Positions 31,138-61,568 of a DNA stretch of 64,000 bases are shown piece after piece. The DNA lies in NCBI GenBank assembly GCA_963840145.1, contig CAWIXR010000005.1, positions 94,094 to 158,093 of the forward strand, read 5' to 3'. Source of the stretch: an uncultured Chloroflexia bacterium. Lineage in GTDB: Bacteria > Chloroflexota > Limnocylindria > QHBO01. Below the pieces are notes generated by a model that searched no databases, was not told where the DNA came from, and was given only the letters and a program-made list of their open reading frames with translations. Within the stretch, counting starts at the first letter, position 1, and every line of letters starts with the position of its first letter. Position numbers and translations under genes: made by a program.

Positions 31138-32022
31138 ATGACCGGTCCCGAGCGCTCCTGGTCCTCGCGCTTCCCCGAAGGCTGGTGGGGCTACCACTGG
31201 GAGCCGCCCGTGCCGATGAGCGCGGTCGAGCTGATCGGCACCCCGACGATCGACGCGCGGCTGATGGCCACGTTGTGGGCCGTTGTCGCCCGCCGCCGCA
31301 GCGTGATGCTCAGCTCCGAGGCGCCGCAGGCCGGCAAGACGACCCTGCTGAGCGCGCTCGTCGACTTCCTCCCCGCTGACACGACCGGAATCTTCGTCCG
31401 CGGCTGGTGGGAGGAGTACGACTGGCTCGACGAGATCCCGCCCGGCACCGGCTACCTGCTCATCAACGAGATGAGCGACCACCTGCCGATCTACGTCTGG
31501 GGCCGCGCCGCCCGCGGCGCGCTGATGCTGGCCGGCAAGGGCTGGGGCATCGGCGCCACCATGCACGCCGACTCGCTTCCCGAGGCCCTCGCCACCCTTC
31601 GGACCCACCTTGGCGCGACCGATGCCGACCTCGCCGGCCTCACCGTCTACCTCCAGTACTCGGCCTACCTGACGCCGGCGGGGATGTATCGGCGCATCGA
31701 GGAAGCCTGGCACCTGCGCCTGGATGCCGATGGCGCGCTGGCGCCCGTCCGGCTCGGGGCCATCGAGGGCGATCGGTCCAGTTCGCTGACCGGCGCCCAG
31801 CGTCTGCCCACGCCGCCGATGCTGTCATCGGATGGTGGCCGTGCTGCGCGGCCATTCCTCCACGACCCGGCCGCCTATGCGGTGCTCGCGACCACGCTCG
31901 GCCTGACGCCGGAGGCATTCGAGGCGGAGCTCGCGCATCGGTCTGGCTTCCTCGAGGAGCTGGCCGAGCGCGGTGTCTGCGATCCACCCGCCGTTGCCGC
32001 AGCCGTACGCGACTTCTCCTGA
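31138..32022 (+). CDS. divergent secretion-type (VirB11/CpaF/FlaI superfamily) P-loop ATPase core, stand-alone
   Basis: Walker A APQAGKTT, Asp-box-like GIFVRGWWEE, atypical Walker B YLLINEMSD and His-box GATMHADS, collinear with the CpaF ATPase domain. No N-terminal domain. The ATG is 4 nt after the aldH stop. Confidence 0.5.
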   Translation: MTGPERSWSSRFPEGWWGYHWEPPVPMSAVELIGTPTIDARLMATLWAVVARRRSVMLSSEAPQAGKTTLLSALVDFLPADTTGIFVRGWWEEYDWLDEIPPGTGYLLINEMSDHLPIYVWGRAARGALMLAGKGWGIGATMHADSLPEALATLRTHLGATDADLAGLTVYLQYSAYLTPAGMYRRIEEAWHLRLDADGALAPVRLGAIEGDRSSSLTGAQRLPTPPMLSSDGGRAARPFLHDPAAYAVLATTLGLTPEAFEAELAHRSGFLEELAERGVCDPPAVAAAVRDFS

Positions 32023-32316
32023 CTCGATCCCCGCACCACGGGACATACGCCCAAGGAGGGCAGCGCGGCGGGGAACTCCGGCGTGATCTGACCCGTGCCA
32101 CGGGAATTCGGCGACGGAGGCGGCCGTGCCTGGGAGTATCTCCCGCCCTACGGGAAGGCCATTCCGCGACGTTGACGCGGTACACTCGCCCTGTTCGCGC
32201 TCAGGCGCGTCCCTATCACGAGTGGCCCGAGAGCCCTGGCTCGCTGACGGCCCGGCAACCGACCCGCGTCCTCGCGCGGAAGCGGTGCCCCAGCCAGGAC
32301 CGATAGGAGACAGAGG
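32023..32316 (+). promoter_or_regulatory. 294-nt leader A with three TCCCG-N5-CGGGA palindromic motifs
   Basis: Copies at 32030-32044, 32092-32106 and 32142-32156. It is paralogous to leader B. Confidence 0.45.
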
Positions 32317-33426
32317 ATGACCGCTCCGCCTTCCCCGAACTCGACGACGCCCGAACGCGCCGTCCACCTGGTCGGCAGCACGCCCTTCGACGATCCCGAT
32401 GAGGCACTCGACGTCTTCTACGCGGAGCTGGGTCCGCGGTTGCGCACCGTCCCTGACGGGGAGACCGGCGAGCGCCAGAACTGGATCCAGGGGCTGATCG
32501 ATTCGTTCCGGCACCATCCCAAGCTCGAGGTCGCGCGCCACGGCGACTGGTCCGACTACGACAAGACGCCGACCTTCCGCGTCCGCCGCGGGCAGCGGTT
32601 CACCTCCGCCGACCTCGATCTTGGGTACCTGCGCCACTTCAACGAGTCGTGGCCGCTCTTCGAGCGACGGCGGACCGATGGCCAGCGCTTCCAGGTCGGC
32701 GTCCCTGGGGACTTCGACCTGTCGTCATTCACGTTCGGCCCGTCGCCGAACGGGCTTCGCTATCGAGCAGCCTTCCGGAACGCGACGCTCCGCGACATTC
32801 GCGCGATCCACGACATCGCCGGCGATGAGGTCGTCTACCAGATCGAGGTGCCCTTCGAGCTCATCATCCTGACCTTCCTGCCGCCCACCGTCGGGCGACT
32901 CGCGGCCGGCTACTTCGCCCGCGGGATCGCCGACCTCGCGCGGCGAGCACCGGAGGGAAGCCGCTGGGGCATCCACCTGTGCCTCGGCGACATGAACCAC
33001 CGTGCCTTCGGCCGGCTGCGCGACGTCGGGCCGGTCGTCTGGCTGGCGAACGCGATCGTCGGCCGATGGCCGGATGGCCGTGTCCTCGACTTCGTCCACG
33101 CGCCGCTGGCCGCGGCCGCCGAGCCGCCGCCACTCGAGCCGGAGTTCTACGCACCGCTGCGCGAGCTGCGGCTTCCCCCCGCGACGCGGTTCGTCGGGGG
33201 CTTCGTCCACGAGGGACGGACGCTTGCCGAGCAGCGGGCGCTGATGGCGCGGCTCGACGCGTTGATCGGCCGGCCCGTGGACGTCGCGTGCTCGTGCGGG
33301 CTGGGGCGACGCTCGCGCGACGACGCGCTGCGGACGATCGCGCTGGCACGGGAACTCGTCGATGGGGATCGGGCCGCGGATGAGGTCGCCGAGTTGCCGC
33401 CCGTAACCGTTGCCGCTCGCGAGTGA
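32317..33426 (+). CDS. MetE/UROD-fold protein (cobalamin-independent methionine synthase C-terminal-domain-like)
   Basis: IHLCLGD (His-x-Cys) and C-terminal VDVACSCGLGRRSRDDALRTIALAREL resemble the MetE zinc-site motifs. AGGAGA RBS. Confidence 0.5.
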   Translation: MTAPPSPNSTTPERAVHLVGSTPFDDPDEALDVFYAELGPRLRTVPDGETGERQNWIQGLIDSFRHHPKLEVARHGDWSDYDKTPTFRVRRGQRFTSADLDLGYLRHFNESWPLFERRRTDGQRFQVGVPGDFDLSSFTFGPSPNGLRYRAAFRNATLRDIRAIHDIAGDEVVYQIEVPFELIILTFLPPTVGRLAAGYFARGIADLARRAPEGSRWGIHLCLGDMNHRAFGRLRDVGPVVWLANAIVGRWPDGRVLDFVHAPLAAAAEPPPLEPEFYAPLRELRLPPATRFVGGFVHEGRTLAEQRALMARLDALIGRPVDVACSCGLGRRSRDDALRTIALARELVDGDRAADEVAELPPVTVAARE

Positions 33427-33717
33427 ACCTCGGCTCCCTTGATTCTCGCACCACGGGAGTTAGTCACAGCGAACCATCCGGGATTGCTACCTCGGTCGCG
33501 ATCTGACCCGCAGGACGGGAAGTTCGCGAAGGAGCTGGCGTTCGCTGGGCGGAACTCCCGCACCACGGGATACGCGCCGCCGAATGACGGCCAAGTGGGT
33601 GGTCGGGCAACGAGTGCTACGCTCTGGGGCGTGACCCCGAGCACCGACCGCCCGGCCGATACCACGCTTGGCGAGCTGCGCGCCGTGGGCTACCGGTCGC
33701 GCAGCGTCAAGGAGGAG
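33427..33717 (+). promoter_or_regulatory. 291-nt leader B with three TCCCG-N5-CGGGA palindromic motifs
   Basis: Copies at 33444-33458, 33506-33520 and 33556-33570. It shares blocks such as GATCTGACCCG and GGAACTCC with leader A. Confidence 0.45.
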
Positions 33718-35058
33718 ATGCGAGCCAACCTGCTGGCTCATCTCCGCGAGGGACGGACCTTCCTGCCGGGAATCCTCGGCTACGACGAGACCGTGCTGCC
33801 GCAGCTCGAGAACGCGATCCTGGCCGGACAGGACGTCATCCTGCTCGGCGAGCGCGGGCAGGCGAAGAGCCGGATCGCGCGCAGCCTCATCGGCCTGCTC
33901 GACCCGTGGCTGCCGTATGTCGCCGGCACCGAGCTCCACGACGACCCATTGCACCCGGTCTCGCCGCTCGCGCGCCGGATCCTCGCCGAGGAAGGCGACA
34001 ACGCGACCATCGGCTGGTGGGCGGCGGAGGATCGGTACAGCGAGAAGCTCAGCACCCCGGACATCAGCATCGCCGACCTCATCGGCGAGGTGGACCCGGT
34101 CAAGGTGGCCGAGGGCCGCTACCTGTCCGACGAGCTGACGATCCACTATGGGCTGCTGCCGCGCACGCATCGGGCCATCTTCAGCCTCAACGAGCTGCCG
34201 GACCTGGCCGAGCGCATCCAGGTCGGCCTGCTCAACGTGATGGAGGAGCGCGACGTCCAGGTCCGCGGCTACCGGGTGCGCCTGGAGCTCGACCTGTTCG
34301 TCATCGCCAGCGCGAACCCGGAGGACTACACGAGCCGCGGGCGGATCATCACGCCGCTGAAGGACCGATTCGGCGCGCAGATCCGGACGCACTACCCGGA
34401 GGAGAGCGACACCGAGATGGCGATCGTCGACTCGGAGGCCACCATCTTCGAGACCGATGACGACCGATCCATCCCGGTCCAGGTGCCCGGCTTCATGAAG
34501 GAGGTCATCGCGGAGCTGTCGCAGCTGGCGCGGCGATCCTCGGAGGTCAGCCAGCGCTCCGGCGTGAGCGTGCGGGTCACGATCTCGAACCACGAGACGC
34601 TTGCCGCGGCCGCACTGAAGCGTGCCGTGCGCCTCGGCGAGCCGTCGGCGGCGCCGCGGATCAGCGACCTGCCGGCGATCGTGGCCTCGACCGCGGGCAA
34701 GATCGAGCTCGAGACCCTCGGCGACGAGACGCGCGAGGATCGCGTCGTCGAGAAGCTCGTGGCCCGCGCGGTCGTCAACGTCTTCAACCGCCACTTCGCG
34801 CTCAGCGAGATGGCGCCGCTTATCGAGCGCTTCGAAGAGGAGGGCCTGCAGGCCGAGGTCGGCGAGTTCGTCCCGTCGACCGCCCACGGCTCGCTGGCCG
34901 ACGCCGTGCCCGAGCTGCGGTCGGCCGTCGCGCGGCTGGACGCCGGGGAGTCGCCGGCGGGCGTGGCCTCGGCGATCGAGTTCGTCCTCGAGGGTCTTCA
35001 CCTCAACCGGCGGTTGAACAAGGAGCGCCGCGGCGGCGGGATCCGCTACGCCCGCTGA
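33718..35058 (+). CDS. ChlI/BchI-like AAA+ protein with degenerate Walker A and Walker B motifs
   Basis: Collinear with Mg-chelatase ChlI (FLPGILGYDE..., LLPRTHRAIFSLNELPDL..., SANPEDYTSRGRIITPLKDRFG). Walker A reads GERGQAKS where ChlI has GDRGTGKS. Walker B reads FSLNE where ChlI has YIDE. AAGGAGG RBS 4 nt before the ATG. Confidence 0.6.
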   Translation: MRANLLAHLREGRTFLPGILGYDETVLPQLENAILAGQDVILLGERGQAKSRIARSLIGLLDPWLPYVAGTELHDDPLHPVSPLARRILAEEGDNATIGWWAAEDRYSEKLSTPDISIADLIGEVDPVKVAEGRYLSDELTIHYGLLPRTHRAIFSLNELPDLAERIQVGLLNVMEERDVQVRGYRVRLELDLFVIASANPEDYTSRGRIITPLKDRFGAQIRTHYPEESDTEMAIVDSEATIFETDDDRSIPVQVPGFMKEVIAELSQLARRSSEVSQRSGVSVRVTISNHETLAAAALKRAVRLGEPSAAPRISDLPAIVASTAGKIELETLGDETREDRVVEKLVARAVVNVFNRHFALSEMAPLIERFEEEGLQAEVGEFVPSTAHGSLADAVPELRSAVARLDAGESPAGVASAIEFVLEGLHLNRRLNKERRGGGIRYAR

Positions 35059-35590: not shown

Positions 35591-38305
35591 GTGCCTGGCG
35601 GGGCGGAAGTCTCCTCGATGACCCTGAGCGATGAGCGTGCCGCGCGATTTGCCGCCGCTGGCGCCTATCGGCGCCTCTTCCTCGTGGCCGGCGTGGGCAT
35701 CGTCGCCCTCGTCGCGGGCGTCCTGGCGAGCGGTGGCGCACCCTGGCCGCAGCTCGTCCGCCTCGCCGCGGCTGCAATCGGCTTCGCGTTAGCGTTCCGC
35801 GGCTGGCACGCCGCGGTCGGCCGCCGCCGTCGCGTCCGCGGGTGGATCACGTTCGCGATCGGCGTCTGGCTCGTCTCCGAGACCGGCCGCCTGGTCGCGG
35901 CCTGGACCGGCGAGCCGGCCATCCTCGCCGAGCTGAGCGTCGTCGCCCTCGCTGTCGCGGCGGTCGGCACCTACATCGCCATCGTCCGCGGTCGGATGCG
36001 GCCGGCCGAGGAGGCGGCCCTCTACCTCGACCAGGCGGCCCTCTTCTTCGGGCTGATGGCCGCGGTGGTGCTCATCGGTTCGAGCGTGCTGTACGACGGC
36101 CACAGCGTGGCGGTGCTGGCGCACGGGGCCTTTTTCCTCGGCGTGCTGGCGGCGACGCTGTTGCTCGATCTCGCCACCCACACGCCGCTCCGCTTCGTGG
36201 GCCCATGGGAGATCCTCGTGGGGCTGGCGTTGGTCGCGGGCGGCTACATCGGGCTGCTGACCCGGACGGGACCGGAGACGGTGACGACGGCGCTGCAGCT
36301 GAGCGTCGCCTTCGGCGTGATTCTGGCCGGACACGGGGGCGGCCACTGGACCGATCTCGAGGCGCGATCGCCGCGATACCTCAGGGCCGCCGACACGTTG
36401 CGGAGGATCCTGCCGATCGGCAGCGCGATTCTGACCGTCGCGATCGGCGTCGTGCTGATCTGGCAGCCGGAGATGATCGCCGGACCCGCGCGCATCGGCG
36501 TGGCGGTCGCGGCCGGCACCGCCGCGCTCGCCGTGCTCGCCCGCCAGACGCTGCTGCTTTTGGATCGCGACAGGGTCATCGGCAGCGAACGCCGCCTCAG
36601 CGACGAGCTGACGGTCGCCGAGGCGCAGTACCGATCCGTCGTCGAGCGCGTGCCCGGCGTCGTCTACGTCGCCGAGGCCGGACAGCACGGTCGCTGGCAT
36701 TTCGTCAGCCCGAAGATCAAGCAACTGCTCGGCTACAGCGCCGAGGAGTGGATGGGCGATCCGACGCTCTGGATGACCCGCATGCATCCGGCCGATCGCG
36801 CCCGGATGATCCAGGCCGAGAACGACGACCTCGAGCGCGCCGACAGCCAGGGGCGCTGGGAATACCGATTGATCGCGCGCGACGGTCGCGTCGTGTGGGT
36901 CATCGACGACGAGGCGGTCATCAGCCGCGACGTCGACGGCCGGCCGATCATGGTGCAGGGCATCCTCGTCGACATCAGCGACCGCAAGGACCTGGAGGAA
37001 CAGCTTCGCCACCAGGCCCTGCACGACCCGCTCACCGGCCTGCCGAATCGGGTGCTCTTCGTGGATCGCCTCTCGCATGCCCTGGTGCGCCGCGCGCGGG
37101 CGACGAACGGTCTCGCGGTGCTGTTCGTCGACCTCGACGACTTCAAGGACGTCAACGACAGCCTCGGCCACGCGGTCGGCGACCGCCTCCTGCGCCTTGT
37201 CGCGGCGCGGCTGCGCGGCGTCCTGCGCGCCGAGGACAGCGCCGGGCGCCTGGGGGGCGACGAGTTCGCCTTCCTGCTCGAGGACGCCACCCCGGCTCGC
37301 GCCGAGCGGGTGGCCGAGCGCATCCTCGCCGCCCTTGGTGCGCCGTTCGAGCTGGGCGAGGGCAATGCGACCCTGTCGGCCAGCATCGGCATCGCGGTCC
37401 GCTCGGGACCGATCGACGAGACCGATGCCACCGCCGCGGCCGACGAGCTGCTGCGCGACGCCGACACCGCGATGTACGCCGCCAAGGCGATGGGCAAGGG
37501 CCGCGTCCGCCTCTTCGACCGCGGCATGTCCGAGCCGGCGGCCCGCCGCCGTGAGCTCGGCGCGGCCCTGGCCCGGGCCTTGGACGATGACGATCAGCTG
37601 TTCCTCGAGTACCAGCCGATCGTCGACCTGCGCAGCCGCTCGTGGTTCGGCCTCGAGGCACTCGTGCGCTGGGATCACCCGCAGCTCGGCCGCCTGATGC
37701 CCGCCGAATTCATTCCGCTGGCAGAGGAGAACCGCCTGATCAGCCGCCTCGGCGACTGGGTCCTGCGCCGCGCCTGCAGCGACCTCGCCGGCGGGAACAC
37801 GCTGGTCTCGGTCAACGTGTCCGCCCACCAGCTCGGCGGCGATCTCTCCGGCGTCGTCGCGGCCGTCCTGGCCGAGACCGGGCTGAAGCCCTCGCGCCTG
37901 ATGCTCGAGCTGACCGAGAGCACGATCGCCTCGGCCGGCGCCGGGGCCGAGGGCGAGCTCCAGGCGATCCAGGGCCTCGGCGTACGGATCGCGCTCGACG
38001 ACTTTGGATCGGGCTACTCCTCGCTCGAATACCTCGGCCGCATCCCGATCGACATCCTGAAGATCGACCGCTCGCTGGTCGAGCAGGTGCACGTCGAGCC
38101 GCAGCGCCAGGAGGTGCTGCGGGCCATCGGCCACATCGCCGAGAAGCTCGGCCTGCGCACGATCGTCGAGGGCGTCGAGCACGAGGCCCAGCGGGAGGCG
38201 CTTCTCGATCTCGGCTTCCACCATGCGCAGGGATTCCTCTTCGCCCACCCGCTGCCGCTCACCGAGGCCCTCGCCCCTCCCTCCGAGCTGTCGCGAGCTT
38301 CGTAG
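35591..38305 (+). CDS. membrane sensor protein with PAS, GGDEF and EAL domains (c-di-GMP turnover)
   Basis: ~9 N-terminal TM helices, a PAS region, GGDEF (RLGGDEFAF) and EAL (EALVRW, ELTES, DDFGSGYSS) motifs. Confidence 0.85.
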   Translation: MPGGAEVSSMTLSDERAARFAAAGAYRRLFLVAGVGIVALVAGVLASGGAPWPQLVRLAAAAIGFALAFRGWHAAVGRRRRVRGWITFAIGVWLVSETGRLVAAWTGEPAILAELSVVALAVAAVGTYIAIVRGRMRPAEEAALYLDQAALFFGLMAAVVLIGSSVLYDGHSVAVLAHGAFFLGVLAATLLLDLATHTPLRFVGPWEILVGLALVAGGYIGLLTRTGPETVTTALQLSVAFGVILAGHGGGHWTDLEARSPRYLRAADTLRRILPIGSAILTVAIGVVLIWQPEMIAGPARIGVAVAAGTAALAVLARQTLLLLDRDRVIGSERRLSDELTVAEAQYRSVVERVPGVVYVAEAGQHGRWHFVSPKIKQLLGYSAEEWMGDPTLWMTRMHPADRARMIQAENDDLERADSQGRWEYRLIARDGRVVWVIDDEAVISRDVDGRPIMVQGILVDISDRKDLEEQLRHQALHDPLTGLPNRVLFVDRLSHALVRRARATNGLAVLFVDLDDFKDVNDSLGHAVGDRLLRLVAARLRGVLRAEDSAGRLGGDEFAFLLEDATPARAERVAERILAALGAPFELGEGNATLSASIGIAVRSGPIDETDATAAADELLRDADTAMYAAKAMGKGRVRLFDRGMSEPAARRRELGAALARALDDDDQLFLEYQPIVDLRSRSWFGLEALVRWDHPQLGRLMPAEFIPLAEENRLISRLGDWVLRRACSDLAGGNTLVSVNVSAHQLGGDLSGVVAAVLAETGLKPSRLMLELTESTIASAGAGAEGELQAIQGLGVRIALDDFGSGYSSLEYLGRIPIDILKIDRSLVEQVHVEPQRQEVLRAIGHIAEKLGLRTIVEGVEHEAQREALLDLGFHHAQGFLFAHPLPLTEALAPPSELSRAS

Positions 38306-59692: not shown

Positions 59693-61568
<1,876 letters not shown>

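Follow-up and report, generated by a model that had tools for sequence, protein, structure and literature searches.

Palindrome triplets beside a MetE-like gene and an ATPase gene as probable copies of a structured interspersed repeat family in Limnocylindria

Introduction

Among described bacterial repeats, those closest to the element considered here are built from repetitive extragenic palindromes (REPs). REP doublets keep a conserved spacer length and show compensatory changes (PMC3116915). In Pseudomonas fluorescens, a pair of short palindromes flanking a spacer of conserved length makes up a REPIN (REP doublet forming hairpin), in which the whole unit is one long hairpin (Bertels & Rainey 2011, PMC3116915). 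Dimers of REPs tagged with GTAG or CGTC, and the bacterial interspersed mosaic elements (BIMEs) of E. coli, consist of stem-loops of 5–13 bp found mainly just downstream of open reading frames (ORFs); the dimers are head-to-head, have conserved and sometimes structured spacers of 20–100 bp, and can occur in clusters (Di Nocera et al. 2013, PMC3733652). A Chloroflexi example, GTAG-23 of Thermomicrobium roseum, is on record (PMC3733652). Here we analyze 64,000 nt of DNA (the window) from an uncultured Chloroflexia bacterium of the class Limnocylindria (assembly GCA_963840145.1, contig CAWIXR010000005.1, positions 94,094 to 158,093 of the forward strand), in which two triplets of short palindromes lie upstream of a MetE-like gene and of a gene for an AAA+ (MoxR/ChlI-like) ATPase. 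We conclude that these triplets are probably copies of a structured interspersed palindromic repeat family.

Two further systems are relevant. BOX elements of Streptococcus pneumoniae are modular (boxA-boxB(n)-boxC), with modules of 45–59 nt that are richer in AT. Palindrome-associated transposable elements (PATEs), derived from IS200/IS605, carry similar subterminal hairpins in direct sense at both ends, an arrangement to be expected if a Y1 HUH transposase recognizes a single DNA strand. A first-pass annotation of the window, made from the sequence alone, had placed the triplets in two paralogous leaders of ~290 nt and read them as either an operator array or a series of small RNA hairpins in structured 5' untranslated regions (UTRs). 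Below, DNA stretches fetched from other assemblies for comparison with the window carry L-numbers (L001 etc.).

Results and Discussion

Six palindromes in two triplets

The window contains six inverted repeats of the form (C/A/T)C(C/T)CG-N5-CGGGA, arranged on the plus strand as two triplets with identical centre-to-centre spacing, 62 nt and then 50 nt. In copy 1, hairpin H1 (CCCCG CACCA CGGGA) lies at 32029..32043, H2 (ACCCG TGCCA CGGGA) at 32091..32105 and H3 (TCCCG CCCTA CGGGA) at 32141..32155. The counterparts in copy 2 are H1 (TCTCG CACCA CGGGA) at 33444..33458, H2 (ACCCG CAGGA CGGGA) at 33506..33520 and H3 (TCCCG CACCA CGGGA) at 33556..33570. All six repeats of the first-pass annotation, in two sets of three, are thus present, the last three at exactly the positions it gave and the first three one base lower. 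It was also correct that five of the six loops read CACCA, TGCCA or CAGGA. The motif it proposed, TCCCG-N5-CGGGA, captures the hairpin form but is perfect in only two of the six palindromes. The core CCCG-N5-CGGG is found in five, the sixth (33444-58) having CTCG and hence one G·U pair, and the 3' arm ACGGGA is invariant (6/6).

When one mismatch or none is allowed, this loose motif matches the 64-kb window 13 times, compared to 9.7 ± 3.1 matches expected. The loose motif is therefore not enriched window-wide, and the signal is the clustering and common architecture of the palindromes rather than their frequency. Another candidate hairpin, at 35131-43, was rejected as a family member; it is an isolated chance match (5.6 bits).

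An inverted doublet with a covarying long-range helix

The two regions align without gaps over ~135 nt and, with their identical 62/50 spacing, are homologous, as had been proposed. Among the longer blocks said to be common to both, GATCTGACCCG occupies homologous positions; GGAACTCC is likewise common to both but at non-homologous positions. Each unit, ~135–146 nt in length, has H1 and H3 as its outer hairpins, with H2 at the tip of an internal arm (P3) between them. The two strands of a 16-bp long-range helix (P2) directly abut the 3' side of H1 and the 5' side of H3. The stem CCCG/CGGG is common to all three hairpins, mostly inside TTCCCG-N5-CGGGAA, and the distance from H1 to H3 is fixed at 112 nt in window-type elements. 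In layout, a short palindrome forms an inverted doublet around a structured spacer of conserved length.

Copy 1 spans 32020..32165 of the plus strand (core ~32026-32156). On one side of it lies the TGA that ends the upstream gene (32020-22), on the other the promoter of the MetE-like gene. In this copy, the 5' strand of P2 (32044..32059) pairs with the 3' strand at 32125..32140, and P3 together with H2 occupies 32076..32119 (32076-86 with 32108-19) and carries the conserved tail GGGAAUUCGGCGACGGAG. Copy 2 spans 33435..33580 of the same strand (core ~33441-33571), between the stop codon of the MetE-like gene (33424-26) and the promoter of the ATPase gene; its P2 pairs 33459..33474 with 33540..33555, and P3 with H2 occupies 33491..33534 (33491-501 with 33523-34). 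The European Nucleotide Archive (ENA) version of the same contig (L003) differs from the window by one base in copy 2, reading GCTGGGGGGAAC at ~2232 where the window has GCTGGGCGGAAC at ~33546, which means that the assembly is public in two slightly different versions.

The structure was examined in an alignment of nine close copies (A2; 147 columns with a single 1-nt gap), from which a covariance model of the 146-nt element, R1, was built. The RNAalifold consensus on A2 contains H1, H3 and the extended arm P3 beneath H2. P2 was found by inspection, as columns 25-40 pairing with 106-121, and its sequence varies from copy to copy: AUAC.CCCA with UGGG.GUAU in copy 1, GUU..CAGCGAAC with GUUCGCUG..AAC in copy 2, and AACGAACAAGAAG with CUUCUUGUUCGUU in L009. 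On A2, the proposed structure pairs 80.8% of cells, compared to 29–46% with slid partners; the values for P3 and H2 are 87.7% and 95.6%. Eleven pairs are changed on both sides, eight of them among the 16 pairs of P2. For 21 independent elements, we compared the match of each to its own partner with the match across elements, at 14 positions flanking the terminal hairpins. The mean number of matching positions was 10.5 of 14 for own partners and 7.0 of 14 across elements; in 20,000 permutations, the observed mean was never attained. Hence, the P2 pairing is real and covarying.

Copies elsewhere in Limnocylindria

Scanning the window with R1 gave exactly two sites, copy 1 at 134.8 bits and copy 2 at 127.1 bits; the best unrelated match reached 11 bits. 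On the minus strand, the same two sites score 26 and 19 bits. Seven further full-length copies (114–134 bits) were found in the fetched stretches. One, in L001, is the ortholog of site 1, and six are new sites on metagenome contigs (L042, L049, L050, L054, L058 and L066). Distant versions, at 40–49 bits, are present in metagenome-assembled genomes (MAGs) of Limnocylindria (L009, L014, L021, L041, L069 and L079).

A two-hairpin search pattern, CCCGNNNNACGGGAA-N33-37-CCCGNNNNACGGGA, retrieved 29 stretches from species-representative genomes and 53 from metagenomes, and had no match in viral contigs. Clustered hairpin arrays make up 10 of the 29 genome matches, and all ten come from MAGs labelled Candidatus Limnocylindria, Limnocylindrales or 'uncultured Chloroflexia'. 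The arrays in these loci comprise 2 to 16 hairpins at spacings of 50, 51, 62 or ~81 nt, and two MAGs are matched by the strict pattern on two contigs each. Matches in other taxa (Streptomyces, Bacillus, Poribacteria and others) were set aside as plain tandem repeats and chance matches. The window itself belongs with this group as judged by its aminopeptidase N (PepN), whose best named matches are to Candidatus Limnocylindria (62–72% identity, versus at most 58% for Chloroflexota and Actinomycetota). On these grounds we dropped an actinobacterial origin, which a match of PepN to a model of actinobacterial type and MetE-like homologs named from Actinomycetota had first suggested.

Pairwise identity among the nine close copies is 58–78%, and orthologous copy pairs are 83–89% identical. 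Identity between the two window copies (64%) falls within the range that they show to copies on other contigs (58–70%), so they are separate, diverged members of an old family rather than products of a local duplication. None of 4227 Rfam covariance models matched the palindrome modules, whether at the gathering threshold or at E ≤ 10; the sole hit was the SAM (S-adenosylmethionine) riboswitch downstream of copy 1 (see below). A search of the literature on Limnocylindria with 'palindromic' turned up no description of this family or of other repeats for the class. If our reading of the element holds, as we think probable, the family is one of structured interspersed repeats of Limnocylindria, of which we found no earlier description.

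One array stands out in size. In a Chloroflexia MAG (L004, 3274-4210), ~16 CCCG-N5-CGGG hairpins lie within 1 kb at tandem periods of 62 nt and 70 nt, an expanded array of the same hairpin unit that adjoins an aminotransferase gene. Pfam searches on the ORFs adjoining large arrays gave only housekeeping genes or no match.

Neighboring genes and orthologous sites

In all loci examined, the element is intergenic and lies beside unrelated genes. Its neighbors encode an SLH-domain protein, glyoxalase/NfeD, a PEP-utilising enzyme/PspC, ATP synthase epsilon/PfkB kinase, UvrD helicase, aminotransferases, DUF885, an MFS transporter, ThrRS and an amidohydrolase. The element occurs in both orientations relative to these genes: in two of seven independent contexts (L042 and L049) it is antisense to both flanking genes, and the copy in L066 sits between convergent gene ends. 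Copies usually start no more than 30 nt past a stop codon.

Gene order around the two window sites (hypothetical gene, MetE-like, ATPase, DUF1232, PAS-GGDEF-EAL) is kept in relatives. Of five relatives, just the closest, L001 (85% protein identity), carries the element at site 1; the site is empty in the other four (L002, L086, L087 and L088). Site 2 is empty in all four relatives compared (L001, L002, L086 and L087), and in L086 there is no intergenic gap at this position at all. The element is thus missing upstream of most orthologous genes, and for this reason the idea of gene-specific leaders falls; the first-pass annotation had itself named lack of conservation at orthologs as the observation that would count against it. 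The element is not part of a conserved regulation of either downstream gene.

Nor do the triplets lie in 5' UTRs. Both come right after the stop codon of the preceding gene and upstream of a probable –10 box, which places them outside the transcribed leaders. The leader lengths of ~290 nt were wrong for other reasons as well: the ATPase gene starts at GTG 33631 rather than ATG 33718, and the last 100 nt before the ATG of the MetE-like gene are a probable riboswitch for S-adenosylmethionine (SAM). What stands of the proposal of small RNA hairpins in structured 5' UTRs is that the hairpins are real and constrained by structure; their placement is not.

Nature of the repeat

The structure covaries, the copies form a family scattered among unrelated genes, and orthologous sites can be filled or empty. 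These findings lead us to regard the two triplets as, in all probability, copies of a structured interspersed palindromic repeat family of Limnocylindria that resembles REPINs, BIMEs and BOX elements and is probably non-autonomous mobile DNA. Such an element would fold as single-stranded DNA and would be, or have been, moved in trans by some enzyme. At both window sites it would merely occupy the stretch from a stop codon to the promoter of the following gene, where the upstream transcript may incidentally gain from it a 3'-end hairpin or an insulator.

The nearest parallel is with REPINs. Shared with them are the pair of short palindromes flanking a spacer of conserved length, the folding of the whole unit as a long hairpin, two-sided compensatory changes, extragenic dispersal, and differences in presence between relatives. 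Unlike REPINs, the element has a third identical hairpin on an internal arm, terminal hairpin loops that are mostly direct, stems of only 4–5 bp, a copy density that seems much lower, and copies that are far more diverged (58–78%); moreover, it has no GT[AG]G head, and no REP-associated tyrosine transposase (RAYT) was found. Viewed against the features that define REPs and REPINs, it consists of dispersed extragenic palindromic units and forms an inverted doublet around a folding spacer of conserved length with compensatory changes, but its palindromes are not headed by the conserved tetranucleotide GT[AG]G (or CGTC). Membership in the RAYT-REP family is not established.

Like the GTAG/CGTC-tagged REP dimers, the element is made of short stem-loops that lie mainly just downstream of ORFs, in head-to-head pairs with a conserved, structured spacer, and it can be clustered; a representative of those REPs in the Chloroflexi is known, as noted above. 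It differs in that the place of the tag is taken by a variable GTWAG/GTAAC-like pentamer and in that its spacer (97 nt in the window type) carries a hairpin copy of its own. With BOX it has in common a modular intergenic build with distinct terminal and variable internal modules (its relatives have three, four or more hairpins, up to 16 in L004), strong predicted secondary structure and the absence of an encoded protein; the sequence is unrelated and the lineage different. The variable number of internal hairpins in relatives recalls the mosaics of both BIMEs and BOX. As in PATEs, the terminal hairpins are alike and in direct sense. However, no TnpA or TnpB was found near the element, no conserved cleavage tetranucleotide was identified, and the pattern of mismatches and loop flips (see below) argues against strict specificity for a single strand.

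Several observations weigh against a mobile repeat of this kind. No transposase or RAYT was found in the ~560 kb of fetched DNA (six-frame ORFs, searched by phmmer with IS200 TnpA and YafM seeds, which is a weak test), with nothing below E = 1, and comparison of filled with empty sites showed no target-site duplication. There is no strict GTAG or CGTC tag, just the GTWAG/GTAAC-like pentamer beside many terminal hairpins; the pentamers preceding H3 include GTATC, GGAAC, GTAAC, GTTAG, GTAAG and TTAAG. Density is low: the 64-kb window has two copies, and the 60 kb around pepN gave no copy in any of three related genomes. The loops of H1 and H3 are in direct orientation in eight of the nine close copies, which is unexpected for a plain inverted repeat. 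Miniature inverted-repeat transposable elements (MITEs), derived from transposons with terminal inverted repeats, are marked by such repeats together with a target-site duplication; here the ends, GATTCCCG...CGGGAATC, form inverted repeats in many copies, and no duplication was seen. Finally, the copies are old and diverged (58–78%), yet nearly free of indels, a state that looks more like purifying selection on structure or spacing (for a function of host or element) than like decaying junk.

Mainly on account of this last point, we keep a selected function as a live alternative. Instead of decaying as selfish DNA, the element could be a module kept by selection, for example through a long-lived REPIN-like partnership with a Chloroflexota enzyme that is not specific for GTAG, or as a Limnocylindria-specific element of a new class, in which structured DNA or RNA is bound by protein (e.g. 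a 3'-end insulator). The selected function could be the element's own, namely transposition competence, or the host's, as a 3'-end hairpin, insulator or protein-bound module. Three TTCCCG-N5-CGGGAA hairpins at a fixed 62/50 spacing, a covarying junction helix and the near absence of indels all fit such a module, which we consider a minority possibility, perhaps one chance among several.

About equally possible, and again clearly less so than the mobile repeat, is a structured RNA that acts for the host on transcripts, be it a 3'-UTR hairpin block (exonuclease stop, termination or insulation), an RNase processing site or a small non-coding RNA. The conserved length, the covariation in P2 and P3 and the usual position just downstream of a stop codon are in keeping with it. 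REPs are known to work in this way at the RNA level (PMC3733652). Folding energies give a mixed picture: copy 2 folds modestly better than shuffled sequence (z = –2.0) but copy 1 no better (z = +0.7). Against an RNA on transcripts, the element is antisense to both neighbors in two of seven contexts, orthologous sites in close relatives are empty, no T-tract terminator was found, and there is no match to an Rfam family.

The mismatches and the loops bear on the same question. A strand-specific functional RNA is expected to show an excess of G·U over A·C. In the non-Watson–Crick cells of the structure the two are balanced (15 G·U versus 19 A·C), with no strand bias, and because of this balance a palindrome at the level of DNA is favored. 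Between L058 (19-164, minus strand) and L066 (479-624, plus strand), all three 5-nt loops are flipped (CACCA to UGGUG etc.) while the flanks are not; the loops of L011 and L069 are likewise flipped relative to each other, and mixed loop orientations occur inside single elements in relatives. This suggests that inversion of the loop between the stem arms is frequent. The balance of mismatches, the loop flips, the antisense contexts and the folding z-scores, as sequence-level evidence, favor a palindromic DNA element, which may have incidental effects as RNA.

Far less credible is an operator array, in which a dimeric DNA-binding protein would bind the three 15-bp palindromes as double-stranded DNA and regulate the promoters of the MetE-like and ATPase genes. 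Nearly invariant CCCG/CGGG half-sites around a flippable central 5 bp, the lack of strand bias and the position of H3, 25–47 bp upstream of the probable –10 boxes, are what one would want of an operator. But the element is not conserved upstream of orthologs, it has unrelated neighbors in either orientation (including the convergent gene ends of L066), there is no regulator gene adjacent, and the covarying long-range helix and fixed 146-nt architecture would be left unexplained. As an array serving these two genes, the operator of the first-pass annotation is thus not borne out. That one leader was duplicated locally as a segment, or that GC-rich palindromes clustered by chance in a genome of 70% GC, agrees with the lack of window-wide enrichment (13 versus 9.7) but is already refuted by the full-length R1 matches in the window and in unrelated contexts elsewhere (114–134 bits) and by the mutual identities of the copies. 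The nearest relative, L001, which has copy 1 without copy 2, also speaks against this reading, and we give it virtually no weight.

Other candidates were considered and dropped. A cobalamin riboswitch or T-box, prompted by the MetE/ChlI context and the CACCA loops, is unsupported by Rfam, and the promoters are downstream of the element. A small ORF in the modules is contradicted by the lack of a start codon or reading frame conserved between the copies. A CRISPR-like array does not fit, as the conserved unit is just ~15–20 nt and the 'spacers' are homologous between copies. As for an attC site or integron cassette, synteny is kept with and without the element.

Reading the triplets as an interspersed repeat removes a false lead, since they are neither novel riboswitch-like leaders nor an operator array for methionine- or chelatase-type genes. 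It also adds a defined, model-searchable structured repeat family in Limnocylindria, an uncultured class of soil and freshwater. Such repeats matter for annotation, where they mimic regulatory motifs, and for assembly and binning; they are useful as markers of insertion polymorphism and offer a possible handle on the mobilizing enzyme.

Regulatory layout of the MetE-like and ATPase genes

With the repeats set apart, the regulatory layout of the locus is a SAM riboswitch before a gene of an uncharacterized MetE-fold family, followed by an ATPase gene that is probably leaderless. The probable SAM riboswitch aptamer (RF00162-like) lies at 32210..32309 of the plus strand and scores 39.4 bits (E = 6e-7) against a gathering score of 44.4. 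Its P4 is reduced to 2 nt, and the 3' strand of its P1 overlaps the Shine–Dalgarno sequence. The riboswitch is present in all five orthologous loci at 36.5–44.7 bits, the highest value, in L087, being above the gathering score, and the orthologs without the element at site 1 (L002, L086, L087 and L088) still keep it. It is the real conserved leader of the MetE-like gene. The probable –10 box of this gene, TACACT at 32181..32186 (+), aligns with TAGACT in L002, L086 and L087; in these relatives the box comes immediately after the preceding gene's stop codon or overlaps it. A scan for consensus promoters and terminators gave no match.

The MetE-like protein (369 aa; 32317..33426, +) had no match in sequence searches of Pfam, NCBIfam and the PDB. 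The family is large (873 homologs at E ≤ 0.001 among 8000 candidates scored) and includes proteins named from Actinomycetota. An AlphaFold (AF2) model built from 35 homologs (predicted local distance difference test, pLDDT, 88) was compared by Foldseek and matched B12-independent methionine synthases, MtaA-type methyltransferases and UROD at template modeling (TM) scores of 0.5–0.58, so the label 'MetE-like' holds at the level of the fold. Invariant in the family are H220-x-C222, E299 and C327, which we take to resemble the zinc site of MetE. The protein may be an uncharacterized 'core' methionine-synthase-like methyltransferase.

The ATPase (475 aa; 33631..35058, +; Pfam AAA_5, Sigma54_activat and Mg_chelatase) starts with GTG; a database entry matches this 475-aa protein exactly, and the members of its cluster are 462–476 aa long. 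Comparison of the window with L001, L002 and L087 points to TACGCT at 33618..33623 (+) as the probable –10 box. This box stands seven bases before GTG 33631, and orthologs have TGGTAGGCT 7–8 nt before their GTG. Because a –10-like box abuts the start codon, the ATPase mRNA is probably leaderless or near-leaderless. Regulation of the ATPase gene thus lies in a probable promoter abutting the start codon, and that of the MetE-like gene in the SAM riboswitch. In L086, the ATPase ortholog, also 475 aa, overlaps the stop codon of the MetE-like gene (ATGA; L086 1704), so that operon structure differs between close relatives: seemingly leaderless in the window, L001, L002 and L087, and stop-overlapping in L086.

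Other features of these regions were noted in passing. A DUF1232 and PAS-GGDEF-EAL block (window 35591-38305 and neighbors) travels with the MetE-like/ATPase pair in L001, L002 and L086 (to the contig end), and genes with guanylate-cyclase domains are numerous in related regions (L089). In the related contigs L089 and L090, gene calling divides pepN into two genes. At 59693-61568 of the window, the TypA ORF matches only positions 1-440 of a 594-position model and is followed by a second, overlapping ORF (61032-61568). The TypA and PepN cases likely reflect frameshift-type assembly errors or real pseudogenes in these MAGs.

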